From positions 1-64,000 of IMG/VR virus record IMGVR_UViG_3300021356_000007: a stretch of DNA of 64,000 nucleotides. The stretch is one strand, 5' to 3'. The notes under the pieces are model-generated. The model ran no database searches, had not been told where the DNA came from, and worked only from the letters and a program-made list of their open reading frames with translations. The position numbers and the translations under genes are program-made. Below, piece by piece: positions 16,001-44,965 of this stretch; positions within the stretch are counted from its first letter, which is position 1; each line of letters begins with the position of its first letter. Source of the DNA: a virus.

Positions 16001-18811
16001 TTGACGAGTTACAGAACCAGCAGGATTTAGAGTAGGTTCTACACCAAATTCCTTAGTAGGACTGTGTCCTGCTAATCCAAATCTATTGTCAAGACGCTCT
16101 AGCCTTCGATTATATTCATTTACTACTCTGTCGATTTCTTCTCTCTTCCTATCTTCGTCAGGCACAGCATTAGCCCTTGACATGGCTGATTCGTAATCCC
16201 TTTCGATTTTGTCTAACTCTGTTTGTTTAACTTCCTCTATATCCCCTTGCCTAACAGGGCTATACCTAAGTTGTAAAATCTTGTCCAGTGGGTTTTCACC
16301 TCCTACAGTATGTTTGGCTCTAGGATTCTTTAGATTCATCACATCCTGCTGAGGGTACATAGGATTCATCCTCATACCAAGTTTAGTACCTATAGTATGA
16401 TAGGAATGAGTTCTATGACTTTGCATAGGTTCAGGATTAAGAGCCCCACCTCTACCTGTGTAAGAATGTGCTACTCTCAAAACACCGTTACCTTGTAATT
16501 TCTTGTGAGCCCTGTCTGCCTTATTACTATCCCCTGACCTTCTCGCTGCGTGGTAATCATCGTGAACCATGTTGTTAAACGCAGAATCTACAGTTTGAGC
16601 ATGTCTAGCATAGTGGGCGTTTTGACCTCCGCTACCCTTGACACTACTTGACATGATGACATTGTGAGGTTTGAGATTCTGAGGTGCATCAAGTGGGCTA
16701 CCTCTAACAGTAGTAGTGATAAGTTTACCACTGCCCTTTTCTTTCTGTTGACTCATGCTCATTTCTCTTTGACCGAATGGTGCAAGTGCATTGAGAACTT
16801 TGTAATCGTCAGCCGATTGTATAGCACCTGTTTGTAAATCGTAATCGTGTCTAGGCTCTATTTGGGCTCTAGTCCTTGAAAACCAAAGGCTGTTTTCTTT
16901 GGGACTAAAGATACTACCTTTGTATCTACCCTCTATATCTTGTTCGAATTCTGAACCTAATTCTGACCTTACATATTCTTCTAATTCTTCATCAGGTACT
17001 AAACCTTTGAACCTATCTTTCAGTTCCTCTAGTTTGTCTGCCCTTTCCTTGTCCTCTTTTTCACTGTAAAGTAAACTGTGATGGTGTATCAAATTGTACA
17101 AGTCGTTGGCATCTTTACCAAGCCCTCCGTGACCCTTGAATGGCTTTTGCCAGTGAGTCGCAAGTGTCTCGTGGTCGTCTAGGTAATCGTAATGGTCGGG
17201 ATGCATAGCATAACCATAATGTATAGAGGAATGGTTCTGAGCCATTCTGCCAGCATTAGCCACACGCATAGACTCAGTTTTCCTAGCATCCATTATCGAA
17301 TCCACTTCTTCTTGTGTGAACTCGCCTCCATCCCAAAGTTGTCCGTAAAACGGATGTTGACCTTTAGGATAGATGTTACCGTCAGGGTCCAGTCCTAACA
17401 TAAATCTCAAAGCGTTGTAATTAGGGTAGTAATCCTCTCTTTGGTCTTTAACCATATCATGCCTAAGCATGGAATCAATACCGTGATTATCAGGGGAATA
17501 ATCTATCTGAGGTACTTGTCTTTCAGTAAGAGGTTCGTAACGACCTGCACTATTAGTAGCGTAGTGGTGCTGTTCCATCATTTTGTTGAAATGAGCCACA
17601 GACCTCTGCCAAGCGTTTTTGTCTTTACCCATAGGCTGATGATTTAGTAACGCTTCATAGTTGAAACCGGGCGAAGGCTCATCCCCCTCTTCTGACATAC
17701 CTATAGGTGTGATGAGCATACCATGTCCCGGTCTGTCAGGGTCTCTTGTCCAGTGGTCGTGAAGTCCTGAAAACCTCTGTTGGATATTTCTGATAACCCT
17801 AGGTATCAAATTAGGGTTACCTGAGTACCTATCTACTCTGAACATCCTGTCAGGATTGTAGCCGTTTTCTTGTACATGTCTATAGAATCTGTCTTTTTCT
17901 TCAGGGGTAAACCACTCTAATCCATGAAAGTAGTCCATGAACCCTAAGTTCTCTTTCCAGTATTGCTTCTTTTCATTGATGTGAGCCAACTTGATAGCGT
18001 GGTCTATTTCTTCATCACTCCTACCTTCTTGCTTCATTTGATTAGTGATTTCATCCACCTTAGATGTGTTGTCACCTAGCCAATTTTGATAATCTCTAAG
18101 ATAGAAAGCATGGTTAGTTGCACCCATCACATTACCTGACAAATCTTCGTCAACTGCTAATTGACCGTAGTGAAATTGATTTCTCAAAAAGTCGTGCTGT
18201 TTGTCATCTCTAACCCAGTTTTCCCACCTTGCCTCTTTATGATGGTCCTTTTCGCTTTGAGATGTAGCGGTGTGGTCTGTAGGGTGTACATAGAAGTCAC
18301 CCACTATATTGTGGTACTCACCATGTAAGGGATTCAAGTCAGAGCCTAGATAATCGTGGTCTGCATAAACATCATGCGGGTCTTGATTGTTAGGTTCTAA
18401 TTTCCAAGGAAGCCCTGCTACAGTTTGTCCCATAGGTGGAGGGGTTATTCTGTGTTCCTGATAACTAGGATTATCACTCAACTCCATACCACTGCCAAAC
18501 CTAAGCATGTCAGACATTTGTGCTTCATCGAGTCCTTGTGCCGATTCAAAGCCTTGTCCCTCTGTACTCAAATCGTAATTACCTGAAGGACCTGTGACTT
18601 CTTGGCTCTTCATAAGAAGAACAGAGTTGAACATTTTCAGAAGGGCTTGGTCTTCTTGACTAAGAACATATCCTCTCCTTTCTGCACTAATTGCTGAGAA
18701 ATAAAACTCAGCACCAGCGTCTAATTTACCTATGCCGTCATTAAGAGACTTTACGAATGTAGAACGGTGTCTATCGAGCGTATCTAATGGCCCTTCTCTC
18801 ATCAGCATCAC
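13022..18811 (-). CDS. Very large head-module protein with a C-terminal degenerate ATP-dependent DNA ligase-like (adenylation + OB) region
   Basis: WIVSHMPEGER (motif I-like), YYIFDVIEF...LNDRIKIV (IIIa), ENLLLRDAKSVYMVG...KWVMLKP (IV/V-like); His-rich unknown N-terminal ~1400 aa. Confidence 0.75.
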   Translation of the reverse strand: MMLMREGPLDTLDRHRSTFVKSLNDGIGKLDAGAEFYFSAISAERRGYVLSQEDQALLKMFNSVLLMKSQEVTGPSGNYDLSTEGQGFESAQGLDEAQMSDMLRFGSGMELSDNPSYQEHRITPPPMGQTVAGLPWKLEPNNQDPHDVYADHDYLGSDLNPLHGEYHNIVGDFYVHPTDHTATSQSEKDHHKEARWENWVRDDKQHDFLRNQFHYGQLAVDEDLSGNVMGATNHAFYLRDYQNWLGDNTSKVDEITNQMKQEGRSDEEIDHAIKLAHINEKKQYWKENLGFMDYFHGLEWFTPEEKDRFYRHVQENGYNPDRMFRVDRYSGNPNLIPRVIRNIQQRFSGLHDHWTRDPDRPGHGMLITPIGMSEEGDEPSPGFNYEALLNHQPMGKDKNAWQRSVAHFNKMMEQHHYATNSAGRYEPLTERQVPQIDYSPDNHGIDSMLRHDMVKDQREDYYPNYNALRFMLGLDPDGNIYPKGQHPFYGQLWDGGEFTQEEVDSIMDARKTESMRVANAGRMAQNHSSIHYGYAMHPDHYDYLDDHETLATHWQKPFKGHGGLGKDANDLYNLIHHHSLLYSEKEDKERADKLEELKDRFKGLVPDEELEEYVRSELGSEFEQDIEGRYKGSIFSPKENSLWFSRTRAQIEPRHDYDLQTGAIQSADDYKVLNALAPFGQREMSMSQQKEKGSGKLITTTVRGSPLDAPQNLKPHNVIMSSSVKGSGGQNAHYARHAQTVDSAFNNMVHDDYHAARRSGDSNKADRAHKKLQGNGVLRVAHSYTGRGGALNPEPMQSHRTHSYHTIGTKLGMRMNPMYPQQDVMNLKNPRAKHTVGGENPLDKILQLRYSPVRQGDIEEVKQTELDKIERDYESAMSRANAVPDEDRKREEIDRVVNEYNRRLERLDNRFGLAGHSPTKEFGVEPTLNPAGSVTRQISEARPPSDELALYEEEIANISMLEAQLEEGGLSGEDEFKVHKLIADKQRLLDELEDKIDPLSTKGLRYSKQGHDTILENKLRADTDAIKSAMVHLKQMLANTAPEVHDYIFNPNLDHETAEANMRMFANMANDYLLKVPHEQHGIYTKGHARIDQTGNQTKVDDMANMKRMVHEKGTEFNIADILDMPTALEKLGLDPESIPHQKNLHDLIKDVFQPRFEQYGMDYKMPIMTMRQYLQATDPEMDIDGRHEKVRHHHKTSRDDEFANIVQGMTRRITNPAFSHLNERLGVHYQNAYNEDDRRVRELTDEGQPLYDRKKTAQSKHKNKHHSRYWNTKQYLDSLIVGFPEIEPPAKVKETVDAFTAVPADQFSPHTHSVHSLYNSAGYRHEFGDFFEPNFKFKISRNGNVNVVPVAEGESNKQPLVNILGKFWDAVAPPEWLEMLRHPDHEQSRQLLLRPDRMAANDRPGRFGIARNTDVHSVRKSDIGLADLTNPDILRKELGSEVPILQPMHRIFELDDLEELRGFTGDWIVSHMPEGERGFVKKEDDEVSSKTFDLSDEDKENFKKVTDEDFTADVIKTEEGYYIFDVIEFAEKEVHDVVLNDRIKIVRGALEGVENIHVPSASDTRLTDDEGLKAIVENLSETHENLLLRDAKSVYMVGELRHPKWVMLKPGNDVVLRVLERRGSGPYTYRLGTGPITREEEIGNRAVESDGEIYMDVGVAFNSEEKYNEGDHVMVNAANVSKVETTGGDDVYTLTASKILGEAEGEGLVSRETLGLLAKSEDQWLCEVHRAKSGVRVVMPQGDVLYKCTQTGSMWTVHSPLADSKYLVRLAESQRQYWSPIAGAMLKANLHITEKEEVHESQGDAEPLIEPHKEEGTNWWKEKEKKKILVKGLMLIDRFLKSGAGSVGGSNAGAKGLGIDYATPVESPLGPTNLHDEKTMPDFDNRKRPGEDSYIEPKSKDSEDEKNITIPTEEGTLEITSDKAVFHT

Positions 18812-25455: not shown

Positions 25456-27425
25456 CAGAATTCACCTCTCAAGAATCCATCGAAGTAACCCATCTTCTTA
25501 CGAATCAAATCAATGTCGTTGACTACATCACCGCTTGTTCTTATCGGTGCTTGTTGTACAAGCCCTGTAACATCATCGCTTGGGGCAATGTTGAAGAAAG
25601 TTTGACCTCTCGGTAAAGCCCTCGCTTGTTGAAAAGCCATTTCTTCAGGAGATGCCTGTCGAGTTGGTAAAGCGGGTATAGCAGGCATTTGACCCGTAGG
25701 TTGTGGTATGCCCGCCATGTCACCCGGTACAACTCTTACTTGTTGAGGTCTTTGTTCAATTGCTGGTGCTGGCTGTACCGTTCCTTCTCCTACCATACCT
25801 TGAGAACCAGCCATATCGTTGAGTTCTCCACGGACAGTTGCACCCGGAGGTGCTAGTTGCTGCTGGGTGTATATCCTATCCTGCCAATGGTCGGGGGCTT
25901 GATGGTGTCCAAAATCAGGAACACTGTGTTCAAGATTGTCCTTTTCGTAGTCGGTAGGTATTTCTCCAAAGGTGAACCTTTCATGCCCTGTCTTTTCTAG
26001 TAACTTGTCGATTACTCCTTGAACCTTATCACGGTATTCTTCATCTACACCATGGCTGTCAATATTAGCATCTTCTTCTTCTGCCCTAAGTTGACCTAAC
26101 ACAGTCTGCAAAGCCTCATCTTGAGGAACGCCTTCATTCATGAGTTTACTAGCAGTGTGACTAATGTGTGCTACTATCTCTCCAGCCCTGTGATTAGCAC
26201 TTCTTGCAAACTGAGTGTCTCCTACAGCAGCACCACTAGCATGTTGTGCGTGTAACTTGTAAGTATCTTCATTGTGGTGAGAGCCTAGCCCTCTAACGAT
26301 ATTTCTGAATACAGCACCGACACCCCTGCCAGTTCCATCTGAATTTATACCGTGTGATTTATTTTGGAAAAGTAACCTAATCATAGCAGACCTAGATACA
26401 TCATTGAGTTCTTCAGGGCTTAATCCGTGGTCTATACCTTGCTCGTCAAAGAATGCTTGTAACTTCTCACCGTTAAATCCAGCACCTTGCCCTCTACCAC
26501 CTGCACCCATTCTTCTAAAAGCCGAATGGGGTAGGAAATGTGCAAGTTGGTGACCGTGTACTTCAGGGTGTCTTCTGTTTTCAGCAAGTGATTGTTGTTG
26601 TTCACCACTAAGATACATGTCAGGTAATTGACCTGTTTGCTGATAAGTCTTGAAATCTCTAGGGGCAATAGACTGAACTATACCTCCGCTAAGGCTGCCG
26701 GGCATCAATCTGTTATACTTGACATAATGCAGTTGCGATATATCTTTATCGTCAAGGTAAGTCCTCTTTTTCAGAACATCACCTAGTTCTTTATTCATGT
26801 GAATGAAGCCGCTGTCAATCCATCTTCCAGTAGCCCCACCTTTGACATTTCCTCTGTTCATAGAATAAGTAATCAGAGGTCTTGGTCCATTTTCGTATAA
26901 GGGTTCAGCACCTCTGACTCTTCTCATGTGCGTTGGAACATTGTTTTCATAGTGAGGACCAGCATGGACTTTTCGCCAAGCACTGCTTGAAAAATTAGGA
27001 AGGCTATGGTTAGTCTTCCCATCACCATGTACAGTATCGTGGTTAGCATTGTATTGGTCTATTGCCTCTTGTATCAAACCAGCGGTTTGAACTTGAGCCT
27101 CTCTCAACTTATCAGCATCTCCACTAGCCAATGCTTTAGGGAATATCCTTTGCATTAAGTCTCTGTGAACATAATCAATAGGATGTAATCCCCCATCTAG
27201 TAACTCGCCCGTTTCAGGGTGATGATTGAAAGGAGGGTGGTCGTGTTGCTTAGGGTCAGGATTAACACCTGCATCTGAAGGATTCCAAGAATGTCTGAGT
27301 TGATTGTTGAACATCAGTCCTGCTGATTTTCTGATAGTGTTATTGAACACTCTAAGAAAGTCGTTAGTACCAAAGAAGGTCTGCTTCTTAATATGACTGG
27401 TAGCAGGTAGATGGACTTTCCACAT
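25455..27425 (-). CDS. His-rich putative internal virion protein
   Basis: 656-aa ORF translationally coupled in late operon. Confidence 0.6.
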   Translation of the reverse strand: MWKVHLPATSHIKKQTFFGTNDFLRVFNNTIRKSAGLMFNNQLRHSWNPSDAGVNPDPKQHDHPPFNHHPETGELLDGGLHPIDYVHRDLMQRIFPKALASGDADKLREAQVQTAGLIQEAIDQYNANHDTVHGDGKTNHSLPNFSSSAWRKVHAGPHYENNVPTHMRRVRGAEPLYENGPRPLITYSMNRGNVKGGATGRWIDSGFIHMNKELGDVLKKRTYLDDKDISQLHYVKYNRLMPGSLSGGIVQSIAPRDFKTYQQTGQLPDMYLSGEQQQSLAENRRHPEVHGHQLAHFLPHSAFRRMGAGGRGQGAGFNGEKLQAFFDEQGIDHGLSPEELNDVSRSAMIRLLFQNKSHGINSDGTGRGVGAVFRNIVRGLGSHHNEDTYKLHAQHASGAAVGDTQFARSANHRAGEIVAHISHTASKLMNEGVPQDEALQTVLGQLRAEEEDANIDSHGVDEEYRDKVQGVIDKLLEKTGHERFTFGEIPTDYEKDNLEHSVPDFGHHQAPDHWQDRIYTQQQLAPPGATVRGELNDMAGSQGMVGEGTVQPAPAIEQRPQQVRVVPGDMAGIPQPTGQMPAIPALPTRQASPEEMAFQQARALPRGQTFFNIAPSDDVTGLVQQAPIRTSGDVVNDIDLIRKKMGYFDGFLRGEF

Positions 27426-28546
27426 CAGCCTACCCTCCCACTCCCTCTAGCAGCGAAAAGTAGACTTGGTGCGCCCCAGTTCTTTGGGTCATCCTCTAAG
27501 TTCTCTGTAGCACCTTCAGGTTTGGTAGTGCTGTCTTGTCCTTCACGATGTCCCGCTTCTCTGTTGTTACCATGACCTCCTTGCTTAGCAGCCTTTTTAC
27601 TCCCTTCTTTTCTCTCTAGGGCTTCTTTAAGTTGCCTGACAAGTCTTCTCATCTGATTGAATTGCATGTAGTCCATCTTTTTCTCGACTAACTCTATATC
27701 TTCTCTAATCAAAGACAAAGACTTTGCAAAGGACTTGCCCTTTTCTTTGATATTTCTTGGTTCTTTGATTTGTCCTGAGCCTCCTGATTTAGGGACCCTT
27801 GGGTTGTAATCAGTTTCAGCACCTATTCCGTGTCCTGAAGGTATCTGTGGTACATTACCCATCAATTTTCTACGAGCCTGAGTAGCCTGTTGCTGTCCAT
27901 ACCTTTGTGCATCGAGTCTTAGAGGTTGTTTGGTTTCAACACCTAAGTGAGTCCTGTGTACAGCAAGAGGGGCTCTATCTAATCCTCTCTTTTTCTGAGG
28001 ACTCATAGTCCTTGACTGTTGTTTAGAACGCCTACTGGTTGCTGATGCGATGTTAGAACCGCCCGGTTGAATCTCAAATTGAGGCTGACTCCAAGTCTTA
28101 TCCTTGGCAGTACCCATCTCATCTAACTTAGACTTCATCAAACTAGACCAAGCATCCTCCATAGGCTCACCTGTAGCGAGCATACCGCCCGGTGCAGGCA
28201 TAGTCCCAGTAGCAGCACCAAGACTGAGGTTACCCATATCGGGCATACCTGTCATAGCACCGAACTGCTGACCTTCATTGAATTGGTCGCTCATCTGTAA
28301 AGGGTCTTCTTCTTCCTCCATCATAGGAGGCATCATAGGAGGTTCTTGTTGAGGGATTGATATTTGTAGATGCGGTAGAGTTTCACTCATAACAGGCTTT
28401 TCCTTTTCAGCCTGCTTTTCGTCACGCACCTTTTCCATTTCTTCAGGGTCGCCATAACCATGCTTGTAGTCTTCATCTTTGGAATAACCAAGATTAGACT
28501 CACTTCTAGGTGAGTACATGCGTGTATCAGAACCTGTACTTGGCAT
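27425..28546 (-). CDS. Low-complexity putative internal head protein with TGEPMxxAWxxLxK motif
   Basis: GAGGTGA SD; acidic N-part, TGEPMEDAWSSLMK/S, then basic part. Confidence 0.65.
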   Translation of the reverse strand: MPSTGSDTRMYSPRSESNLGYSKDEDYKHGYGDPEEMEKVRDEKQAEKEKPVMSETLPHLQISIPQQEPPMMPPMMEEEEDPLQMSDQFNEGQQFGAMTGMPDMGNLSLGAATGTMPAPGGMLATGEPMEDAWSSLMKSKLDEMGTAKDKTWSQPQFEIQPGGSNIASATSRRSKQQSRTMSPQKKRGLDRAPLAVHRTHLGVETKQPLRLDAQRYGQQQATQARRKLMGNVPQIPSGHGIGAETDYNPRVPKSGGSGQIKEPRNIKEKGKSFAKSLSLIREDIELVEKKMDYMQFNQMRRLVRQLKEALERKEGSKKAAKQGGHGNNREAGHREGQDSTTKPEGATENLEDDPKNWGAPSLLFAARGSGRVG

Positions 28547-28557: not shown

Positions 28558-29316
28558 TCATAAAATGTCAAGGATGTCCTCATCCACTGTTCCATCAGCG
28601 TTGGCGAGTAGGCTGGCCTTGACTCGCTTCCATACATCGGTACTTTCTTTGCCTAATTCAACTTTGAGGACATTTATCGTATTATTGGCTACATTTGTAG
28701 ATGGTTCAGCCCATTTTTCTTGGTAAGCACTCAAATCCTTGAGTGTCTCTCTGACCTCTTTGTGGAGTCTTACCATGTCACTGATGACACCGTCATCGTG
28801 TATGTTGGTTTCTTCCATATACTGTGCTAACTTACCGTTCAGTCCTTGTACATTGTTCCTAAGAATATCAATTTCTTCGCCTACTTTGATAGCAACTACG
28901 GCTGCGGAACTCTTTCTAACTAGAGGCTGGAAGTGTTGCTTCATGTGTCTATACACTGAATCTTCACTGCACTCTAGTTCCGTGGCAATATCGTCACTGG
29001 TCCTTTCACCTTCAAAATATGCTACTTCCAATTCCTTTCGATTCTCGCTAGTGCATACTGCACATGAATGATTAGAAGTAGAATGATATTCACCTACATG
29101 ATTTTTCATGTGACGCTCTGCTGTGTTGGCTCTCCAGCCCATATCTTTATCCATTATTTGGGGGTTAGCGATACCGTCAATGATACTCTGCTCTAAAGCA
29201 TCACGGTCACCATGTTGACAAAAAGAACAACTTCTCTTTGTCTGACGAGTACCTCCCATACCATGTCGGAGGGGGCTGGTATGAATAACCTTTTTGAATG
29301 GGAAGGTTACCCTCAT
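28558..29316 (-). CDS. Terminase small subunit candidate: tandem C-x2-C...H-x3-H Zn/HTH repeats plus coiled coil (true start probably nearer 29260)
   Basis: CSFCQH...AERHMKNH and CAVCTS...VYRHMKQH duplicated; oligomerisation-type helices; upstream of TerL in same transcription unit. Confidence 0.55.
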   Translation of the reverse strand: MRVTFPFKKVIHTSPLRHGMGGTRQTKRSCSFCQHGDRDALEQSIIDGIANPQIMDKDMGWRANTAERHMKNHVGEYHSTSNHSCAVCTSENRKELEVAYFEGERTSDDIATELECSEDSVYRHMKQHFQPLVRKSSAAVVAIKVGEEIDILRNNVQGLNGKLAQYMEETNIHDDGVISDMVRLHKEVRETLKDLSAYQEKWAEPSTNVANNTINVLKVELGKESTDVWKRVKASLLANADGTVDEDILDIL

Positions 29317-29319: not shown

Positions 29320-29631
29320 GTGAAACTGCCTAGAATTAAGCCCAAAATCATGGGTGTACCTGTTTCTATAGAAACTGCTCGTGGCTTGTCAAGAGCCTCT
29401 AAGGATATATTAAGAAAAAGAGTAGTCCCTGAAGAAATAAAGCAAGAAAGACTCGACATTTGTATGTCCTGTCCCAGTTGGAAAAACTACAGATGTATGG
29501 AATGTGGTTGTCAAATGCGTGTCAAGACTACACTAACATCGAGCAGATGCCCCAAAGGTAAATGGAAAGAGTACCTAGACTTCAGAAATACGGGAATAAA
29601 TACCAGTCAACATGAAGAAAGCACCGAATAA
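29320..29631 (+). CDS. Small Cys-rich Zn-binding protein (start uncertain)
   Basis: ERLDICMSCP...RCMECGCQM..KT.L....CPKGKW, a motif family common in marine viruses. Confidence 0.65.
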   Translation: MKLPRIKPKIMGVPVSIETARGLSRASKDILRKRVVPEEIKQERLDICMSCPSWKNYRCMECGCQMRVKTTLTSSRCPKGKWKEYLDFRNTGINTSQHEESTE

Positions 29632-29817
29632 TCCCAGCACAAGGTAAGCCATTGTATTACTAGCCATCTTGCCACCTGATGTCAGCAGTAAAACTGTGAG
29701 AGTGACTATTATTGTCAATAGTTGAACCATAACCATGTCAATGATTACACTTTTACGAGGTGCAAATATTTCCATAGCAGTCCCTGAAAAGCCAGCAATT
29801 GGTGTAAAATCCTTCAT
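29575..29817 (-). CDS. Two-TM small membrane protein (holin-like topology)
   Basis: Hydrophobic stretches VIIDMVMVQLLTIIVTLTVLLL and MAYLVLGLFGAFFMLTGIY; GAGGTGA SD. Confidence 0.7.
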   Translation of the reverse strand: MKDFTPIAGFSGTAMEIFAPRKSVIIDMVMVQLLTIIVTLTVLLLTSGGKMASNTMAYLVLGLFGAFFMLTGIYSRISEV

Positions 29818-29822
29818 CTATA

Positions 29823-30455
29823 TCACCTCGTACCCATAAAATTACCCATGAACTTACCCGCAGCAGAACCTGCCTTGTCCATCAGATTGTCATTAGCCAG
29901 TGCAGCACTCAAAGCCCCGCCCATCATAGATTGTTGAGCGAAAGCAGCAATCTGCTGTTGCTGCATCTCTGCGTTTTGAATACTCTGTTGACTTGCCATC
30001 TGTAAATTACTGAACTGACCTTTGACATTCTCTGCACTCATAGTCTGTAGACTATCAGGTAGAGAAGTTACATCCATTTTCATTGTCCCTTCTTTGTCGT
30101 TAATCACGAATTCGGCATTCTTTAGTATCTCAAGTACAGAAAAACTCACTAAATCGTTCATCATTTGTAAGAAAACAGCCATCTGAGCCCCTACTACGAA
30201 CCTATCAATAGGTGCAAGTGAGCGCATCATAGCCATTTGTATCTCCATTTCACTCGGAGGTTGTATAGGTTGCTGCATCATATTCGCTTGCATACCCATT
30301 CCGCCCATCATTCCGCCCACAAATGTATTCTGAGAAGCCTGTTGCATCATACCTTGTGGTGCGAATGGGTTCATTTGGGCAGCCATTGGGCTAGAATTAC
30401 CTTGTGCGCTGAGATTCAGTGCGCCGTTTTGCTGTTGTCCATTACCAAATATCAT
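29823..30455 (-). CDS. Q/M/G-rich hypothetical protein of GTPase operon
   Basis: GAGGTGA SD; low-complexity N-terminus, amphipathic C-terminal helix. Confidence 0.7.
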   Translation of the reverse strand: MIFGNGQQQNGALNLSAQGNSSPMAAQMNPFAPQGMMQQASQNTFVGGMMGGMGMQANMMQQPIQPPSEMEIQMAMMRSLAPIDRFVVGAQMAVFLQMMNDLVSFSVLEILKNAEFVINDKEGTMKMDVTSLPDSLQTMSAENVKGQFSNLQMASQQSIQNAEMQQQQIAAFAQQSMMGGALSAALANDNLMDKAGSAAGKFMGNFMGTR

Positions 30456-30466
30456 ATCTTTTCACC

Positions 30467-31480
30467 TCATACTGTGGATTGTGTAAATATACCTTGCTCT
30501 GTCTGTGGCAGGACATCCTGATTGATAACACCATTGGCATTTTCTTGGGGTAAACTCTGCGCTACACTAGGTTGAGGGACTTGATTTATACCCAATTGAG
30601 TGATAGCATCGGACAAAGTAGGGCTCATATTAGCCATTTCTTGTTGAAATAGCCTCAAATCGAACACAATCATAGTCACATCGTTGATTCCAGTCTCAGG
30701 ATTCTTGTAATGTAATAGGTTAATACCGTTATATGCCTTAGAATCCTTCTCTAATTGCATGAAAAATGGCTCATATTTCTTCAATAATTCAGGTGTATTG
30801 TCCTTCTTTTTGACTACTGCAATGGGTACAGCGACTGTAGAAACGCCCTTTTTCACCATTTCTTTCATGCCCATGCTAGTTTTATTGTGGTCTTTGTCTG
30901 CTTCAGACTCCCATTTGCACAATAAATGGTACAAATGTAGGTGTTCAGGGCAATATGTACCCTTCATTTTCCTACCATTAGTAACTTGTTCTCTTGCTAC
31001 AAAGGCTTCAGGGGCATTAGTTACAGGGTTTTTCCAATACATTTCCCACAAACTCTTACCTGAAACCTCATCTGTAATCTTAGCATAGAGATTATCATAC
31101 TTGATTAACTCTTCACAGTCACAACCATCAATCACACAAAGATTACTTTGTCTATTATATCTATATTTTCTACCCCAAATCCACCTTAGAGGACTGTACC
31201 ACTTACGCTTAGTAGGTGTCAAAAGCCTTCTCGCACTTCTGATGTCTTGTTTTCTTGCCTTTCTTGGGTCAGGGTGACGACTTGGGTAGAAATTCACCTT
31301 TGGAACTTCTATATTCTGCTTAGCAATTTCTTGCATACCTTGTTGAGCAGCCTGCATTTCGAGTAACTGTTCATGACTAGCATTACCCTGCTGGCTCAAA
31401 GCCATCATGTGCGCCTGACTCATATTAGCCAAATTCACATCCCCTTGTGGGACTCTTCCATATCCGCCTATCCTCATCAT
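30467..31480 (-). CDS. Hypothetical protein with Cys/His Zn site, GTPase operon
   Basis: AGGTGA SD; CVIDGCDC...YCPEH; basic-aromatic KRKWYSPLRWIWGRK patch. Confidence 0.7.
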   Translation of the reverse strand: MMRIGGYGRVPQGDVNLANMSQAHMMALSQQGNASHEQLLEMQAAQQGMQEIAKQNIEVPKVNFYPSRHPDPRKARKQDIRSARRLLTPTKRKWYSPLRWIWGRKYRYNRQSNLCVIDGCDCEELIKYDNLYAKITDEVSGKSLWEMYWKNPVTNAPEAFVAREQVTNGRKMKGTYCPEHLHLYHLLCKWESEADKDHNKTSMGMKEMVKKGVSTVAVPIAVVKKKDNTPELLKKYEPFFMQLEKDSKAYNGINLLHYKNPETGINDVTMIVFDLRLFQQEMANMSPTLSDAITQLGINQVPQPSVAQSLPQENANGVINQDVLPQTEQGIFTQSTV

Positions 31481-31488
31481 AATATCAC

Positions 31489-32205
31489 CTAACTTAGTAA
31501 CTCCATCATTGTATTTTCAACATTCCAGCCTATTCTTGTAGCCATCATTCCCCTCTTCGTAGGAACGCCCGCTTTTTGGAGGCGTACAAGGTCTTCTCTG
31601 AAGGGGTCGAACATCTTGTGTTCACCCAATCTTTGTTGCTGCCAAAGTATATTGGCTTGCTCATCCCACCATTCATCTGCTTTATTTGCAACCAACATAA
31701 TAGTCTTTGGAACATACTTTTTACCTCTCAATCTACTTTTAAAATTTCTATAACGATACTGCCTGTGGAGTATTGAATCTACGAGGAACTTAAAACCCCC
31801 CACTGCTTGTACTGCTGGGTCTCCACCTAATGTAGTTCTGTTATCAAATAAGAATATAATGGCTTCAACTTGTCTATTAACCATATCATCTATCCAAAGA
31901 TTCCAAAACCTTTCCTCACCTGCTATGTCAGAAGAATAAACTACTCTCTTGTCACCTTTCCAAGCAACTCTTTTTCTTGTAGGGTTTGGTAACAAGAATC
32001 TGTTTATACCCGGCACTTTGAAATGTTTAGTCCTTTCACTAAGAGGTATCTCTTCCATTTCGCCCGGTGTTGTCATGTAGCGGTCAAGTGTAGTCTTACC
32101 TACCATTGTCGGTCCGTACACCCCTACTCTTCTTGGCTTCCAGTAGTGGTAGAATTCCTTAGCGAACACCACTCCGCCAACTAAAGCACTACCACCCAAT
32201 GACAT
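31489..32205 (-). CDS. Ras-superfamily (Arf/Rab-like) small GTPase with hydrophobic N-terminal extension
   Basis: G1 GPTMVGKTT, G3 DIAGEERFWNLW, AIIFLFD, G4 VANKAD, G5-like MATRIGWNV. Confidence 0.85.
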   Translation of the reverse strand: MSLGGSALVGGVVFAKEFYHYWKPRRVGVYGPTMVGKTTLDRYMTTPGEMEEIPLSERTKHFKVPGINRFLLPNPTRKRVAWKGDKRVVYSSDIAGEERFWNLWIDDMVNRQVEAIIFLFDNRTTLGGDPAVQAVGGFKFLVDSILHRQYRYRNFKSRLRGKKYVPKTIMLVANKADEWWDEQANILWQQQRLGEHKMFDPFREDLVRLQKAGVPTKRGMMATRIGWNVENTMMELLS

Positions 32206-32206
32206 T

Positions 32207-32464
32207 TCAATTTCTCCAACTGAATATAGCGTCAGACCACTCTCTTAACTTTTCTTTGAGCCAGTCTCCAGTTGACTCCCATAAATTCCAATCAGTGTAA
32301 AACTCAAACGCACTGACTACAAACGCAGTACAAACAGAAAAAATGACGGTCCTAATCCAGCCCCACCCTCTTTCGTATGCTACATCAACCGTATTGGCTA
32401 TGTGCATACTCCTCAGTGTTTCTTCAACTGCGTCATCACTGGGGGTCTTGAAGATTCGACCCAT
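32207..32464 (-). CDS. Single-TM membrane protein
   Basis: WIRTVIFSVCTAFVVSAFEFY hydrophobic helix, Trp-rich amphipathic tail. Confidence 0.7.
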   Translation of the reverse strand: MGRIFKTPSDDAVEETLRSMHIANTVDVAYERGWGWIRTVIFSVCTAFVVSAFEFYTDWNLWESTGDWLKEKLREWSDAIFSWRN

Positions 32465-32470
32465 AAGTTA

Positions 32471-33025
32471 TCACTTCTCCTTTTTCTTGAATGTCCCATC
32501 TGCGTTTCTCTTTCTCTTAGCGTCTTTTTCATCATCAGTTTCTTCGAATGTTAAACCAAGTGACATAGGCTCTTTTGATACTGGTTGAGTTGCTGGTACA
32601 AAATCAGCAGTGCTAGTAGTAGGTGGATTCATCCTTTCTTGAATCCAAGGTGGAGTTTGACCGGGGTTTTGCTCAAGCCAGTTTAGTTCAGCCTCCAACT
32701 GTGCTTCTTGAAGTCTTAATTCCATGTCTTGTCTTCTACGGTCAAAGTTCATCTCCATACTTCTGTACCTTGTTTTTCTCTGTTTTTCCTGTGCGGCCAA
32801 TCTCGCTCTTTCATCCATACCTTGTTGGAAGAACATTTTGAAAAGATAGTACGCTACACCCTGAACAGCAAATGCTGCCATAGCATAAGTAATTCCGTTA
32901 ACTGTAGGGTCGTCTAATTTTAACCAGTATTCTGCATCGAAAACGGCTATTGCTATACCGATTGATACGGCTTGGGTGAGTATCAAACCCATCAATCTTA
33001 TTTCTGCTTGGTCTACATCTCTCAT
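32471..33025 (-). CDS. Two-TM coiled-coil membrane protein (start reassigned to MRDVD)
   Basis: TMs LMGLILTQAVSIGIAIAVF and GITYAMAAFAVQGVAYYLF followed by long charged coiled coil. Confidence 0.7.
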   Translation of the reverse strand: MRDVDQAEIRLMGLILTQAVSIGIAIAVFDAEYWLKLDDPTVNGITYAMAAFAVQGVAYYLFKMFFQQGMDERARLAAQEKQRKTRYRSMEMNFDRRRQDMELRLQEAQLEAELNWLEQNPGQTPPWIQERMNPPTTSTADFVPATQPVSKEPMSLGLTFEETDDEKDAKRKRNADGTFKKKEK

Positions 33026-33109
33026 TGTCTCTCTGCCACTCTGCAAAGTTATCCCTCTAACCTTCTGCAAGACCACTGCGTAAATAAAGGTATCACAAAA
33101 TTAGAAGGC

Positions 33110-33145
33110 GGGTCGGCAGGGAATGAGAGAGAACCTGACCGACCC
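33110..33145 (-). terminator. GC-rich intergenic stem-loop (terminator or processing/sRNA element)
   Basis: GGGTCGGCAGG (33110-33120) / CCTGACCGACCC (33134-33145), 11 bp with 1-nt bulge; T-rich tract follows on minus strand. Confidence 0.5.
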
Positions 33146-33164
33146 ATGTGTTGTAATTATATCA

Positions 33165-34460
33165 TCAATCTTTTTTCTTTTCAGAATCAAGTTTTTCCCT
33201 CTTGCCATTCTTTGAAGGGCCCGGGCCTGCTTTAGAACCGATAACAATAACCATGCCATGTGCTGGCTTTTTGCTACCTTCTTTTTTGTTCAAATCTTCT
33301 TCACCTTTACCGTCAGCAGCGAACTTAGGGACTTTCTTGCCCTCATGCTCTACCATTTCCAGTTCTCCCTTAGCCGTACATCCCATTTTATTGACGCAGT
33401 TTTCTTTACCGCATCCGGGGCATTTAGCCTTAGACATTTCTTCATTCATCCCGTAAGGGCAGGTCATTTTACCGATGCACTCAGGTTTAGCGCATCCAGC
33501 GCACCTTGCTTTGTACATCATATCTTCAACTTGCTTCTTTATTTCTTCGCCTATATTGTTTGTAAACATATACTCACCTAATGATTTCCTAGTCCCGCCA
33601 TACTCTGCCTGTTGTTCGAAAGCAGAACCCTGATTCGGATTCCAAATCTCTCTATCAAGAACAGAACTACTCTGAACATTGGAAATATCACCCATACCTG
33701 CATTAGTCTGACCTAGACCAAATGTTGAACCTGAACCACCCCCACCAATCAAAGACGAAAGGTTTGTCCCTTGCCCGCCACCGCCACCACCGGGCGTATT
33801 ATTTTGCATATAATTCAGACCTGCCATACCGAGTCCTACTGCACCTGCACCCAAAGCACCAAGACCAGCCATTCTTCCAAGAGAAATAGACTCGTCTACT
33901 CCTTTAGCACCCCTTCCAATTTGACTGTAAGCACCTTGTCTGAAAGCACCCCTACGGGCAGCATCTGTTCCGGCTTCTCTTGCCATTCTTCGAGTATAAG
34001 GTTGGTTTCTTGCTAGTTCAAATAATCGAGCGTCTGCGTTAGCAGCAGTCACAGGAGGAAGTTGTCGGCTGACTGCATCAGCCTGCTCTCTTGCAATACG
34101 GTTTCTAGTAGCAGTTTCTGCTGCTTCTCTTGCTGCTGCTCTCTGTGAAGCAATTTGAGCCCCTCTTCTTCCAGCGAGTCTTCCCACTCCCTTAGCACCT
34201 AACTTAACTGCTGCACCTGCACCAAGACCTTGAGCCATTCCTGTACCAAACTCAAGTGCATTAGAACCAAAACTATCGTCACCTTCAGCGAGTTCCATAC
34301 CAATGAATGGGTCTGTGATTTGATTATCACGGACATTCTTATAACCTTGATAAGCACCATAGCCCAATAATGCCAATGGTATAAGCGGAAGTGCCTTGTT
34401 TACGGTGTCTTCTTTAACCACCGACCATGCTCGGTCAATCGGCGAAATAGATTCCGACAT
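33165..34460 (-). CDS. Putative ejected/internal virion protein with AWxxVK leader and Gly/Ala hydrophobic helices (start reassigned to MSESISPID)
   Basis: MSESISPIDRAWSVVK/ED; hydrophobic LPLIPLALLGYGAY and LGALGAGAVGLGMAGL; two CxxC-x3-C repeats. Confidence 0.65.
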   Translation of the reverse strand: MSESISPIDRAWSVVKEDTVNKALPLIPLALLGYGAYQGYKNVRDNQITDPFIGMELAEGDDSFGSNALEFGTGMAQGLGAGAAVKLGAKGVGRLAGRRGAQIASQRAAAREAAETATRNRIAREQADAVSRQLPPVTAANADARLFELARNQPYTRRMAREAGTDAARRGAFRQGAYSQIGRGAKGVDESISLGRMAGLGALGAGAVGLGMAGLNYMQNNTPGGGGGGQGTNLSSLIGGGGSGSTFGLGQTNAGMGDISNVQSSSVLDREIWNPNQGSAFEQQAEYGGTRKSLGEYMFTNNIGEEIKKQVEDMMYKARCAGCAKPECIGKMTCPYGMNEEMSKAKCPGCGKENCVNKMGCTAKGELEMVEHEGKKVPKFAADGKGEEDLNKKEGSKKPAHGMVIVIGSKAGPGPSKNGKREKLDSEKKKD

Positions 34461-34638
34461 GAATATCCCCATGCTGTTTGTTTTCATAAGCCTGTTGCAA
34501 GTAATGGTAACTTTCTGCGGCTTCAACAAGTAGGTTCATAGCCTCTATGCTACCGTCTTGAAGGTCTTGTATCTTACTCAAGTTGTATTCACTAACCTTG
34601 AGTAACTCTTTCAAAAGTGTGTTCCAAAAATCTTCCAA
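34435..34638 (-). CDS. Small hypothetical protein with FWxxLLK leader
   Basis: GAGGGA SD + TTG; MEDFWNTLLK/E. Confidence 0.5.
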   Translation of the reverse strand: MEDFWNTLLKELLKVSEYNLSKIQDLQDGSIEAMNLLVEAAESYHYLQQAYENKQHGDIHVGIYFAD

Positions 34639-37135: not shown

Positions 37136-38389
37136 TCAGGCTGACCTATCAATTTCACCCTGAACCTTAGAACCATCTTGGCGACCCATGTTCATTGCTG
37201 CCTGCATAAGTTGCTGTCTAGCAAATTGTTGTGCCTCCGGGCTAGATGGGTCAGCGAATGCTCTCATAGTTGGTGTATTTCTTAAGCCCGGACTTAGCAT
37301 TATTTCTTTTTCTTCAGCACTCATAGGTTGCCTTTGCATGTCATCCATTGCTTGTCTCCTTGCGCCAGTCATCCTTGGCTCGAATAATTTACGAGAAACT
37401 CTCTCAGGTTTGTCCTCTTCGACAGGTGCTTCTTGTATTTTAGAACCGCCCGGTGTCATCATACCTTCGAGCATTGCTCGGATTCTATCTTCTTGGCTCA
37501 TTTCTTGAGGTGCTTCTTCTTGTTCAGGTTGAATGAATCTAGTTGTCATACCGGATAGAGGGTCTTTTCCAAAACCTCCAGTCTTCATACCTTCGACATT
37601 GCTAAGTTTTGAAGCAGACCTTTGACGAGCAAATGGATTTCTTTGGACCCTGCCAGTCTTATCACTGACTACTGGCTGATTGAATTGGTCTGTTTGCATA
37701 CCAAGGTTCAGTAAATTTTGACCTGACCTAGCACCACCTCTAACATCGAACCTACCGCCTCTGCTACCTGAAACCATACGGTCAGCAGCAGATGTCATAC
37801 CTTCTCTACCTCTTGCTCTTTCAAGCGGAGTAGTGAAACTTTGTTCAGGGTCTACATCCATCATAGGGATAGTCTGTGTAGGGTGTCTCACTTCTAGTTG
37901 CCCTGTGTTTGGGTTCAAAGCCATACTCGTACCCATTTGGTCTACCACATCTTCTCTTAGAGGACTGATGTCTCTCTCGATAGCAGCGACACTTTGAGGG
38001 ATAGGGTCACCCCTGCCTCCTCCAAGGTTACCTAGAGGAACTGGAACGCTCGCTGTCATTTCACCGGGTCTTTCTACATCACGCTGTACTGCGTCACCTC
38101 TACCACTAAAGGTATCAGTCATCCCCTCTAGTTCAGCCCTTTGCTCAGGAGTAAGCATCTCCAAATCTTTACCTCTTAGTCTGTTGAGCATACCGCCCCT
38201 CATTGTCGCTACTGGGTTCAAAACTCTTGTAGCGATACCTTGACGATTATCTAAAGCACTGTCGCCCATGTATTCATCAATGTATTCGTTAGACGGCATA
38301 CCTGCAATAGCAGGGTGAACTGTACCGTATATACCCTGTGCGCCGGGTTGTGCTTTCAATGTAGTCCAAGCGTTTTCGAGTGCGCTCAT
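37136..38389 (-). CDS. Low-complexity putative internal head protein with AWxxLK leader
   Basis: MSALENAWTTLK/AQ; M/Q/R/G/P-rich, predicted largely disordered. Confidence 0.65.
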   Translation of the reverse strand: MSALENAWTTLKAQPGAQGIYGTVHPAIAGMPSNEYIDEYMGDSALDNRQGIATRVLNPVATMRGGMLNRLRGKDLEMLTPEQRAELEGMTDTFSGRGDAVQRDVERPGEMTASVPVPLGNLGGGRGDPIPQSVAAIERDISPLREDVVDQMGTSMALNPNTGQLEVRHPTQTIPMMDVDPEQSFTTPLERARGREGMTSAADRMVSGSRGGRFDVRGGARSGQNLLNLGMQTDQFNQPVVSDKTGRVQRNPFARQRSASKLSNVEGMKTGGFGKDPLSGMTTRFIQPEQEEAPQEMSQEDRIRAMLEGMMTPGGSKIQEAPVEEDKPERVSRKLFEPRMTGARRQAMDDMQRQPMSAEEKEIMLSPGLRNTPTMRAFADPSSPEAQQFARQQLMQAAMNMGRQDGSKVQGEIDRSA

Positions 38390-39243
38390 GAGGTGGGGAT
38401 AGCGAGACCACTAAAAAAAGTGTTGATTGATTTTGCAAAGTCAGTTGCTTTCCCCAGCATCTTCTCGTCTACCCCTGTTTCAAAGCCCCAAGCGTGTAGA
38501 TGGCTGACAAGAAGGGCAGTATCAAGATTAGCCCCGCTGCCCTCTGCGAAGGGACAACCACCCAATCCCCCGATGCTAGAATCAAATTGCCTGATACCGG
38601 AAAATAAGCCAGCCCTAACAAGCCTGATTGCCTGTTCTTCTGAGCCTTTATGGTGCAAATGCAGAGCCGGAGTTAGGTCTTCTTCGTATACAATAGAAGC
38701 CCAGTCCTTTACCTCTTGCTCAGTCGCAGCACCAACCGTATCGCTGAGAACTACAGTAGAGCCTAGCATCTTCGCATCTCTGATGCAAGACTTGATTTCT
38801 GACTCAGAAAAACTACCGCTATATGGACTACCAAACGCCATGCTTATGTATACCCTAACTAAATCCTTGGGGTAAGCGTTGAGCATCGTCTTGTACATCA
38901 GAACAATTTCGCTTCGAGTCTTACCCATGTTCTTCAGGTTGAATGTCTCACAAGGGCTGAACACGATGTTGATGTAGTCCATACCTAAATCCATAGCCCT
39001 GTCAAAGCCCCTCTGATTCATGACAAGCCCAGCACCTATGCCAGTCCAAACTTCCTCTGCATCAGCCATCTGCGGCAAGATTTTCGGGTGAGCGAAACTG
39101 ACTTCCTCAATCTCAGTCAGCCCGCTGTCATACAGAAGCCCTATGAGTTTCTGTTTGTCAGAGGTAGGGACAAAGTGCTTGATGTATTGCAACCCATCTC
39201 TAGGACCAACTTCGTAGACTGTGATTTTCATAAGACCGTTCAT
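38386..39243 (-). CDS. hmgL: Hydroxymethylglutaryl-CoA lyase (DRE-TIM metallolyase)
   Basis: YEVGPRDGLQ, EEVSFAHPK..PQMAD, LSDTVG, ALHLH, FDSSIGGLGGCPFAEGSGANLDT. Confidence 0.9.
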   Translation of the reverse strand: MNGLMKITVYEVGPRDGLQYIKHFVPTSDKQKLIGLLYDSGLTEIEEVSFAHPKILPQMADAEEVWTGIGAGLVMNQRGFDRAMDLGMDYINIVFSPCETFNLKNMGKTRSEIVLMYKTMLNAYPKDLVRVYISMAFGSPYSGSFSESEIKSCIRDAKMLGSTVVLSDTVGAATEQEVKDWASIVYEEDLTPALHLHHKGSEEQAIRLVRAGLFSGIRQFDSSIGGLGGCPFAEGSGANLDTALLVSHLHAWGFETGVDEKMLGKATDFAKSINTFFSGLAIPTS

Positions 39244-41307: not shown

Positions 41308-42045
41308 ATGACGATAGCATTTGTGAAAGGACAAAGAGCAAGAGGAAAGAGACTGATACTAACTGGCGATGCAATAGTAAGACAGTTACATGAACTAGCC
41401 GAGGATATAATCTACCATGATGTAGATGAATACAATAACTTGGGTGACGAATGCCGTGTGCCTCCTGACTATGCCGAGGCTTGTATGCTAGTAGACAATC
41501 TCAGGATAGTCACACAGAAGTTCCAAAAGATAACAGATAAGATTAGCAGGTGGGGCTATCAAAAATACTACGCTCAATCATACAAAGAAGGGAGTACCTT
41601 GAGAGAGATAGATGGCTTCGGACTTGAAGACTGGGAGTCCGAGTATCAAGAGAAAGCACACAGGTGCATGGGCAAAATACAGGAGAAGTTCGACACACTC
41701 ATGGACACAATCAAGAACCTTGAGCCCAGTGACTTGCACGATTCTATTTCCTTTTTCGACCAAAGTTATCAAGCAAGTAGCGGGAGATGGGAATACGAAT
41801 CAACGAAAGTAGTCATTGTCAAAGGGTTCGATGACTTTGGTATCGAGGACAACAGAACACGCTACAAAGATATGACACTCAAAGAAATGCATGACGCACA
41901 AGAGCAAGCGTACTGGGATAGCCTCTCCGATGCACAGAAGCAGAAGGAAGAGGAGTACGCTAAACCTGACATCACATACATGAGAGAGAACGGCTACACT
42001 TCCTTCGCATGTAATGACAACGGTACAATATCCTACTGGAGATGA
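41308..42045 (+). CDS. Early hypothetical protein
   Basis: AGGAGA SD, 245 aa. Confidence 0.75.
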   Translation: MTIAFVKGQRARGKRLILTGDAIVRQLHELAEDIIYHDVDEYNNLGDECRVPPDYAEACMLVDNLRIVTQKFQKITDKISRWGYQKYYAQSYKEGSTLREIDGFGLEDWESEYQEKAHRCMGKIQEKFDTLMDTIKNLEPSDLHDSISFFDQSYQASSGRWEYESTKVVIVKGFDDFGIEDNRTRYKDMTLKEMHDAQEQAYWDSLSDAQKQKEEEYAKPDITYMRENGYTSFACNDNGTISYWR

Positions 42046-44268: not shown

Positions 44269-44435
44269 ATGACGCAGATTGGATAATATTATCACAGGCT
44301 GAAATAGATTACATTGTTAATTGTATGTGGTATTTACAATCCTATAAAGTAAATAGAGAAGAATTAGCGAAGAAAATAACGAGCCTACCTGCTGGTAGAA
44401 AGAGGCTACAATACTGGGGAGATGATGAAGAATGA
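44265..44435 (+). CDS. 56-aa early protein bracketed by 18-bp direct repeats (below track cutoff)
   Basis: MNDADWIIL...YWGDDEE-stop; ATGA overlaps at both ends. Confidence 0.6.
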   Translation: MNDADWIILSQAEIDYIVNCMWYLQSYKVNREELAKKITSLPAGRKRLQYWGDDEE

Positions 44436-44965
44436 CAGAAGAGATACACTTCGAGAAAGAAGCATGTGTACAATGCTTAGGTTGCTACAACGAAGGGAGA
44501 CTGAACTTCAAGTGGGTCAACGCTGAGTACATACAAGAGAACATCCAAGACCTGAACCCATGCAAGCGAGCCGACCATGAAGAATACATGATGGCTGATA
44601 CTAACTTTGGACTGACCCACAAGATGGGTGAGTACCCTGACTGGGAAGTAGTAGCACAGGTGATGGAACTGATTGAAGAACACGGAGAGCCGTTCAAAGT
44701 GTGGCTCACTTACTCAGACACAGACCACTTGGATGTCAGCGAACTTGCTGACATATTCATGGAAGAATATCGTGGCGAAATGTCTGAGAAAGATTACGCA
44801 TACGAATACATAAATTCCATTTACTCACTTTCTGACCTCGACTACATCATTACAGGCAACATCGACTACGAGGGTGTGTGGATTGACCTCAGTCACGGAC
44901 AACACTGGAGTCACACAACTGGCTCACCTAACTATAACACTTACATATTTGAGAGGCGATACTAA
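44432..44965 (+). CDS. ardA: ArdA-like antirestriction DNA mimic
   Basis: CLGCYNEGRLNFKWV, EEYMMADT, MGEYPD, FMEEYRGE..EKDYAYEY, IDYEGVWIDL follow the ArdA pattern; highly acidic. Confidence 0.75.
   Translation: MTEEIHFEKEACVQCLGCYNEGRLNFKWVNAEYIQENIQDLNPCKRADHEEYMMADTNFGLTHKMGEYPDWEVVAQVMELIEEHGEPFKVWLTYSDTDHLDVSELADIFMEEYRGEMSEKDYAYEYINSIYSLSDLDYIITGNIDYEGVWIDLSHGQHWSHTTGSPNYNTYIFERRY

Follow-up and report, generated by a model that had tools for sequence, protein, structure and literature searches.

The subject of this analysis is a cassette of six genes, g1 to g6, on the minus strand of a stretch of viral DNA of 64,000 nucleotides (nt) that corresponds to positions 1 to 64,000 of the IMG/VR record IMGVR_UViG_3300021356_000007 and is referred to here as the window. 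The cassette is centered on a putative small GTPase, g3, accompanied by three predicted membrane proteins (g1, g2, and g6) and two orphan proteins (g4 and g5). Four virus lineages that are distant from one another have inherited these genes as a unit, and it is close to certain that a virus-encoded, membrane-associated small-GTPase switch module exists in magroviruses, a group of tailed viruses attributed to archaea of Marine Group II, or Poseidoniales (PMC5434244, PMC10768690). Regarding its role, the most likely single guess, made from gene context and protein architecture and given somewhat less than an even chance, is that of a GTPase-gated device for egress or lysis.

The six open reading frames (ORFs) occupy positions 29575-33076 and are separated by intergenic gaps of 6, 1, 8, 11, and 5 nt. 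This arrangement matches the tightly packed block of six minus-strand genes described in an earlier note, which had been made from the DNA letters alone.

The GTPase g3

The product of g3 (31489-32205, minus strand; 238 amino acids, aa) was assigned by means of its motifs, an AlphaFold2 (AF2) model, and profile and structure searches. The protein starts with a hydrophobic helix at residues ~3-22, followed by the G1 (31-39), G3 (93-97), G4 (174-177), and G5 (221-227) motifs. All motif counts refer to 72 distinct homologues, across which G1 (GxxxxGKTT), G3 (D-x-[GA]-G), G4 (NKAD), and G5 (MAT-x-x-GW) are invariant. The switch II consensus of the family, D-[IVL]-G-G-[EQD]-E-R-F-W-N-L-W, is of the type present in Arf, Sar, and G-alpha proteins, and the window protein carries an Ala at the first Gly and a Glu in place of the Gln. 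The Glu at the catalytic Gln position had already been pointed out in the earlier note, which is correct for the window protein; it is not a feature of the family, since this position is occupied by Glu in 38 homologues, Gln in 20, Asp in 13, and His in one.

The family is difficult to reach from a single sequence. Searches with g3 alone against Pfam (with E values up to 1), PHROGs, and the PDB retrieved no match, and the same was true for tblastn against the GenBank phage collection. The close homologues, 496 in total, all come from marine metagenomes and are often found on contigs of ~100 kb, and a full HMMER scan of 1.8 billion representative proteins assigned only 87 clusters to the g3 family. 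Automatic labels of the Joint Genome Institute call some of the members "GTPase SAR1 family protein".

The AF2 model of g3 (predicted local distance difference test, pLDDT, 62; predicted template modeling score, pTM, 0.65) displays the succession b1-a1-b2-b3-a2-b4-a3-b5-a4-b6-a5 after the N-terminal helix, at residues 3-22. Foldseek matched this model to Ras, Rab, Rheb, and Arl2 at E values of ~1e-7, and an exhaustive VIA-align search ranked Arl2 (Z 14.6), SRbeta (13.7), an Asgard Rag-like GTPase (13.6), Arf6 (13.2), Gs-alpha, and Sar1 (12.5) above Ras and Rab proteins (Z ~11). The profile of the family, built with the two most distant, Arf-like clusters (P0205 and P0207) left out, matched an Asgard Arf (8OUN, E 2e-6), Arl8 (6e-4), and Rab33 (1.6e-3), the margins of the Arf-family matches over other GTPases being modest in both the profile and the structure searches. 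The Pfam Arf model (PF00025) does not hit the window protein; closer members of the family reach E values of 0.005-0.15 at most, and only P0205 and P0207 pass the model, with 36 bits at a cut-off of 22.3.

Because of the match of the family profile to an Asgard Arf, the structural ranking of Arl2, SRbeta, and Sar1, and the Arf-like switch II, g3 is read here as a very divergent Arf-clade GTPase, outside Pfam Arf in the strict sense and with a putative activity. The Arf/Rab-like small GTPase announced in the earlier note is thus well supported by the invariant motifs, the G-domain fold, and relatives of the Arf/Sar/SRbeta type. As in the Arf family, which comprises Arf, Arl2, Arl3, Arl8, Sar1, SRbeta, and the Asgard archaeal Arf proteins of PDB entries 8OUN and 8OUM (bioRxiv 10.1101/2024.02.28.582541, PMC11914678), a helix precedes the P-loop of the G-domain fold, and the motifs DxGG-x-x-x-x-W-x-L-W in switch II, NKxD, and A-T-x-x-G in G5 are in place. 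Contrary to these proteins, g3 is longer (238 aa vs ~180) because switch I and the stretch between G3 and G4 contain long insertions, lacks a myristoylatable Gly2, varies among Glu, Gln, Asp, and His at the catalytic Gln position, misses the Pfam Arf model, and is a viral protein whose gene shares an operon with those of membrane proteins.

The N-terminal segment had been described in the earlier note as hydrophobic and amphipathic, as in Arf and Sar1. The first part of this description stands and the second is less clear: the helix at residues 3-22 is moderately hydrophobic, is not predicted to span the membrane, and, with its low hydrophobic moment, is not strongly amphipathic. The protein begins with MSLGG, and therefore carries no Gly2.

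Inheritance, partners and borders

The conservation of the cassette was followed over 80 related loci, which are the IMG/VR loci found through g3 (GTPase identity 64-99%). The genes g3, g4, g5, and g6, together with the two genes after them, appear in the same order in 80 out of 80 loci, and g1 and g2 are each found in 79. The best conserved gene is g3, with a median identity of 74% vs 51-63% for its partners. The earlier note had considered that the six genes might not occur together in relatives; all six co-occur.

Three more distant lineages carry the set as well. The P0127 lineage, with a GTPase that is 35% identical, holds g1, g2, g4, and g6 as recognized by family hidden Markov models (HMMs), a Q-rich gene at the position of g5, and an extra gene of ~250 aa ahead of the GTPase. 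In the P0128 lineage (39% identical), g1, g3, and g4 are recognized by HMM and are followed by a Q-rich gene. In the P0148 lineage, the GTPase is 28% identical. Among the loci of this lineage, 80 were fetched and the gene order was read in 17, all of which encode a protein of ~145 aa with two transmembrane (TM) segments, a 1-TM protein of ~74 aa, the GTPase, a Cys/His protein of ~226 aa, and a Q/N-rich protein of ~235 aa. The resemblance of g1 to the 2-TM protein of this lineage lies in position and architecture only, as their hhalign comparison was not significant. No match came from pattern scans of viral contigs, made for P0161, P0160, P0198, and P0127, or of metagenome contigs, made for P0161.

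The location of the cassette differs among these viruses. In the window it stands before the terminase genes, on the same strand as the packaging and head genes and contiguous with them; in the P0148 lineage (locus L095) it lies between the capsid and tail-tube genes, and in the P0128 lineage (locus L087) it comes after the chaperonin gene. The occupation of three different genome positions indicates that the cassette moves as a unit. In two loci (L045:5727-6394 and L047:5715-6765), the interval from g3 to g4 has gained two or three small genes, the set being otherwise intact. They encode proteins starting with a D/E-x-AW-x-x-LK leader, and a protein of ~75 aa that appears AbrB-like by eye and whose sole Pfam match is a weak one to TOBE (E 0.009). 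The same leader is present on flanking genes of the window, at 33165-34529 and 27425-28546.

The genome that carries the cassette is that of a tailed virus with the described magrovirus gene set. This set consists of an HK97-type structural module, an own family-B DNA polymerase (PolB), a chaperonin, a ligase domain inside the structural module, an SNF2 helicase (in group A), and an HMG-CoA-lyase-like gene (PMC5434244, PMC10768690). The source record is an IMG/VR virus genome of 91,888 bp, estimated to be 89% complete. Pfam scans of window ORFs revealed a structural module of the HK97 type, to which an SU10-like capsid protein, a prohead protease, a portal, and the large terminase (TerL) belong; PolB and a Cpn60/TCP1 chaperonin are encoded by the same virus record, and the SNF2 helicase and the HMG-CoA-lyase-like gene lie in the window. 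The magrovirus set is therefore found here, its ligase domain being represented by a ligase-like match below threshold: an ATP-dependent DNA ligase-like domain in a 1929-aa ORF of the structural module (13022-18811, minus strand), with 23.3 bits for a Pfam cut-off of 26.2. These genes agree with the archaeal tailed virus proposed in the earlier note. At the equivalent place, the P0148 lineage encodes a separate protein of 776 aa with a clear ligase domain (L095:77-2404).

The best cellular matches of the chaperonin are found in metagenome-assembled genomes (MAGs) of Thalassarchaeaceae and Poseidoniales, at ~41% identity. A chaperonin 89% identical to that of the virus is encoded by a 9.6-kb contig (L168, NZQM01000180.1) binned in a Parvibaculum MAG; this contig probably stems from a magrovirus and was assigned to the bacterial genome by mistake.

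A search of 151 genomes from the order Poseidoniales yielded no member of the g3 family, only short matches limited to the P-loop. A derivation of the gene from the host was rejected on this basis, as no family member is present in these genomes of the presumed host order, and the same result speaks against the host housekeeping locus that the earlier note had listed as an alternative. Published descriptions of magroviruses, a wide-ranging survey of the tailed viruses of archaea, and the ICTV's Aoguangviridae profile make no mention of a GTPase, and targeted literature searches retrieved no description of the cassette or of a GTPase in magroviruses.

The three membrane proteins were defined from their ORFs, hydropathy, and family alignments. 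The first of them, g1 (32471-33076, minus strand), counts 201 aa from the listed GTG. Hydropathy points to one strong TM segment (residues 28-46); a weaker hydrophobic segment, also kept in relatives, comes second and precedes a long tail that is charged, helical, and coiled-coil-like and has a basic C-terminus. The family HMM of g1 also matches the P0128 and P0127 lineages. The protein g2 (32207-32464, minus strand; 85 aa) is predicted to cross the membrane once and has an acidic N-terminal segment, which is conserved, and a tail rich in Trp; its HMM matches the P0127 lineage, and the ~74-aa protein of the P0148 lineage is its positional analogue. Lastly, g6 (29575-29817, minus strand; 80 aa) has two TM segments, the first of which contains an invariant Asp and an invariant Gln, and its HMM matches the P0127 lineage at an E value of 3e-8.

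The architecture of g1 recalls the SLATT 2-TM effectors of bacterial conflict systems (NF033632), in which a helical cytoplasmic extension likewise comes after two TM helices. The match to SLATT_4 spans nearly the whole profile and is weak, with 16.1 bits for a cut-off of 55 and only 4 out of 18 homologues at E < 0.1. A SLATT identity for g1 was rejected in view of this score far under the cut-off and the few members concerned; contrary to the SLATT systems, the cassette has no nucleotide-signaling partner.

The two orphan proteins were described by means of alignments. The larger one, g4 (30467-31480, minus strand; 337 aa), has a Q-rich N-terminus, a conserved basic-aromatic stretch at ~73-112, and a disordered C-terminus. 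It holds the invariant residues C115, C120, C177, H180, H182, and H185 in the motifs CxxxxC and GTYCPEHxHxxH, which probably form a Zn site. Family HMM matches were obtained in the P0128 and P0127 lineages with E values of 1e-25 to 1e-47, and the comparison with the basic Cys/His protein of ~226 aa from the P0148 lineage gave an hhalign probability of 92% (E 7e-7), the two sharing a GTYC-x-x-H motif. For g4, AF2 yielded a model of low quality (pLDDT 54) without a fold match, and the predicted complex of g3 (23-238) with g4 (55-290) received a score of 0.00, which, with the fold of the partner being uncertain, speaks neither for nor against a contact. The other orphan, g5 (29823-30455, minus strand; 210 aa), abounds in Q, M, G, and N; its N-terminus, of the MGLFGN type, and a central domain at ~66-145 are conserved, and its C-terminus is Gly-rich. 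Its hhalign match to the analogue of the P0148 lineage is weak (probability 53%, E 1.4e-4), and Q-rich positional analogues of g5 are present in all four lineages. For g2, g4, g5, and g6, no family was found in Pfam, PHROGs, PADLOC, or NCBIfam, and no neighbor in the ESM Atlas.

What the earlier note had said about these five proteins fits the present data: g1 as a 2-TM coiled-coil protein (two hydrophobic helices, the second weaker, and a charged helical tail), g2 as a 1-TM and g6 as a 2-TM protein (hydropathy), g4 as a Zn-site protein with a basic-aromatic patch (the invariant Cys/His set and the stretch at ~73-112 across the family), and g5 as a Q/M/G-rich protein (composition and alignment).

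The 5' border of the cassette is a terminator-like hairpin (33109-33146, minus strand) with a T-rich run after it, located behind the stop of the preceding 454-aa gene (33165-34529). Its folding energy is -21.1 kcal/mol (z -4.6), and none of 200 shuffled sequences folds as well. Relatives carry similar GGGTCGG...CCGACCC hairpins at the same place upstream of g1. Between the hairpin and g1, the TATA-box-like sequence TTTATTTA, whose exact position was read from the sequence (33081-33088, minus strand), is a candidate archaeal promoter of the cassette; TTTAT-type boxes located ~45-55 nt upstream of the g1 start recur, after hairpins, in many relatives. Both the hairpin and the TATA-like box had been named in the earlier note, and both are recovered here.

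The start codon of g1 is probably not the listed GTG at 33076, which would lie too far upstream. Many relatives keep a GAGAGGGA motif 5 nt before the start codon of g1, and in the window a GAGGGA motif precedes an in-frame TTG at 33046 with the same spacing found before the ATG starts of relatives. Because of this spacing, the true start is probably the TTG at 33046, with an ATG at 33025 as the alternative.

On the 3' side, 258 nt separate g6 from the minus-strand gene that comes next, and this interval holds a plus-strand ORF (29350-29631) that the earlier note had missed. It is a small, Cys-rich, convergent gene that overlaps the 3' end of g6 and resembles DUF6171 (Pfam E 1e-4, short of the cut-off). 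Its position and orientation are conserved in 67 of the 80 loci, and it is absent where the gap between g6 and the following gene is short. This gene is a marker of the 3' border and stands outside the module. Bounded in this way on both sides, by the hairpin and TATA-like box and by the convergent gene, the six genes look like one transcription unit.

Possible roles

If the module serves egress or lysis, the cassette would be transcribed with the late genes and g1, g2, and g6 would insert into the cytoplasmic membrane of the host. GTP-bound g3 would dock at this membrane through its N-terminal helix, as Arf, Sar1, SRbeta, and ArvA do, and g4 and g5 would be its regulators or effectors, in the role of a GTPase-activating protein (GAP), a guanine nucleotide exchange factor (GEF), or a coat-like component. 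The nucleotide state of g3 would time a change in the membrane proteins, the membrane would be deformed or opened, and the finished virions would leave the cell.

A role in egress is put first because of the late morphogenetic context, the three membrane proteins, the membrane-type GTPase, the mobility of the cassette, and the lack of a recognizable lysis gene. The last point had been made in the earlier note for conventional lysis genes, and the part of the window ORFs that was scanned with Pfam yielded no lysin or holin family. The family is also virus-specific as far as searched, and ArvA, which drives membrane vesiculation in Euryarchaeota (PMC10927574), offers a precedent. A further reason is that the egress machinery of archaeal tailed viruses has been described as completely uncharacterized (PMC10791045).

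Several observations weigh against a role in egress. No lytic enzyme is linked to the cassette, and no partner of g3 has a recognizable fold or family. The position of the P0148 cassette, between head and tail genes, fits a function in the virion or its assembly at least as well as one in lysis. Regarding the GTPase itself, the AF2 model is of moderate confidence only (pLDDT 62), the N-terminal helix, with its low hydrophobic moment, is not clearly amphipathic, and the catalytic Gln position is not conserved among the 72 homologues, so that a classical switch timed by hydrolysis is not assured.

The bolder form of this proposal, in which the cassette would be the first egress machine of archaeal tailed viruses, a GTP-gated device for membrane opening or budding where an Arf-like switch governs holin-like proteins, is tentative and on balance doubtful. 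Membrane remodeling by small GTPases is thought of as a hallmark of eukaryotes and Asgard archaea; if the proposal holds true, it would also be a viral invention, in viruses infecting Euryarchaeota.

The closest parallel to such a device in bacteriophages is the holin-based lysis cassette, which in lambdoid phages is located directly upstream of the terminase genes (S-R-Rz, then Nu1-A in lambda). Both kinds of cassette encode small proteins with one or two TM segments and charged tails beside packaging genes, the holin ones being expressed late, and both are self-contained and move within genomes. Contrary to the holin-based systems, the viral cassette includes no endolysin or spanin and shows no sequence similarity to them, and a GTPase and two large orphan proteins are an integral part of it. 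No cell-wall hydrolase family was detected with Pfam and PHROGs among the six proteins or their neighbors, and the Poseidoniales host is inferred to have no peptidoglycan wall.

Rather unlikely, yet the best placed of the other explanations, is a membrane-anchored platform for assembly or replication, at which capsids would be assembled, filled, or matured at the host membrane without breaking it. The cassette is embedded in morphogenetic clusters, both before the terminase genes and between capsid and tail-tube genes (L095), and follows the chaperonin gene in L087; the basic-aromatic stretch of g4 could bind nucleic acid or lipid, and the low-complexity g5 could act as a scaffold. Against a platform, no known assembly factor is similar to any of the six proteins, the variable position of the cassette fits a self-contained accessory unit better than a step of an assembly line, and, to our knowledge, tailed viruses do not need a membrane for head assembly.

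The location of the P0148 cassette inside the structural module also bears on a quite improbable explanation, namely that the membrane proteins are packaged in the virion and ejected to form a channel in the next host, the GTPase and the low-complexity proteins being further cargo. The insertion of proteins with the AWxxLK leader between g3 and g4 in L045 and L047 would agree with it. Nevertheless, g1 to g6 themselves carry no leader of this type and have no PHROG match to ejection or internal virion proteins, and we know of no tailed virus that ejects a P-loop GTPase as cargo.

The earlier note knew of no described system with this layout. This is only partly right, since the ArvA-ArvB-ArvC system, also known as OapABC, is a described functional analogue, while it is true that the partners in the cassette are not homologous to ArvB and ArvC. 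ArvA, a small GTPase whose N-terminal part forms a membrane helix, drives the formation of extracellular vesicles in Haloferax and other Euryarchaeota; ArvC is a Zn-ribbon protein proposed to be the GAP of ArvA and modulates vesicle formation, and ArvB is SepF-like (PMC10927574). Like the Arv system, the cassette combines a small GTPase bearing an N-terminal helix, membrane-interacting in ArvA and putatively so in g3, with a protein of putative Zn type and a further small partner, and its proposed action, as the action of ArvABC, takes place on the archaeal cytoplasmic membrane.

The differences were established with Arv operons taken from genomes of a sample of the host phylum. ArvA belongs to the Era/EngA type, with a DTPG motif in G3 and a Pfam MMR_HSR1 match at 7e-14, whereas the viral G3 is DxGG. 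ArvABC includes no dedicated membrane proteins and is cellular, not viral. The comparison of the g3 family with ArvA reached an hhalign probability of 97%, but only from the N-terminus to G3, a span that any pair of GTPases may share. Against the OapB (ArvB, PF09846) alignment, g4 and g5 gave hhalign probabilities below 1% and no Pfam hit; against that of OapC (ArvC, PF09845), g4 gave a probability of 0.05% and no Pfam hit, making its Cys/His site a matter of analogy only. A direct copy of ArvABC was rejected due to the dissimilarity of g4 and g5 to OapC and OapB. Since the ArvA match is partial, the G3 types differ, and g4 and g5 are unlike OapC and OapB, the cassette is not a member of the Arv operon family, and its likeness to an Arv-type or Arf-type membrane switch is an analogy at most.

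It is this analogy that gives a slim chance to a mimic or replacement of the vesicle machinery of the host, in which the virus would use its own ArvA-like GTPase to bud vesicles, either for non-lytic release or as decoys, in hosts that may lack ArvABC. The functions of ArvA and ArvC in vesicle formation and the hhalign match of the GTPases favor it, and so does the distribution of OapB, which was not found in 5 genomes of Poseidoniales/Thermoplasmata and is present in 95 of the 201 genomes of the phylum sample. However, the match covers only the part from the P-loop to G3, ArvA is of the DTPG/MMR_HSR1 type and the viral family Arf-like, and g4 and g5 do not resemble OapC and OapB. In archaea, an exit of naked tailed virions inside vesicles is not known to us.

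Superinfection exclusion, host takeover, or counter-defense at the membrane, for instance through a block of entry or an altered host envelope, has little in its favor: small membrane proteins are typical of exclusion systems and g1 is faintly SLATT-like (16 bits for a cut-off of 55), but genes of this kind are usually variable, accessory, and expressed early, whereas the block is conserved across four deep lineages among late genes, and none of the six proteins has a PADLOC match.

Whichever the role, the cassette provides a concrete and clonable candidate for the question of how archaeal tailed viruses exit their hosts, because it is deeply conserved, virus-specific, and built around a membrane-type small GTPase. 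With its putative GTPase, the few Arf-like GTPases on record beyond eukaryotes and Asgard archaea would gain a viral branch, and the five orphan families of partners are approachable by expression, binding, and liposome assays even with uncultured hosts. Magroviruses are reported to rank with the most abundant viruses in surface waters of the ocean (PMC5434244).

Other genes of the window

The gene after the cassette (28558-29316, minus strand), present in 80 out of 80 loci, encodes a protein of 252 aa with weak helix-turn-helix and small-terminase-like PHROG matches, which may be the small terminase subunit. The HMG-CoA-lyase-like enzyme is encoded on the same strand (38386-39243). On the plus strand are found an ArdA-type antirestriction protein (44432-44965), a DUF932 protein (58720-60231), and an N6-adenine methyltransferase of the Dam class (63182-63961). 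Also on the plus strand, the product of 41308-42045 has a weak, sub-threshold match to Tox-MPTase2, a family of metallopeptidase toxins (E 5e-4), and is, besides the prohead protease, the sole protease-like candidate among the ORFs scanned.

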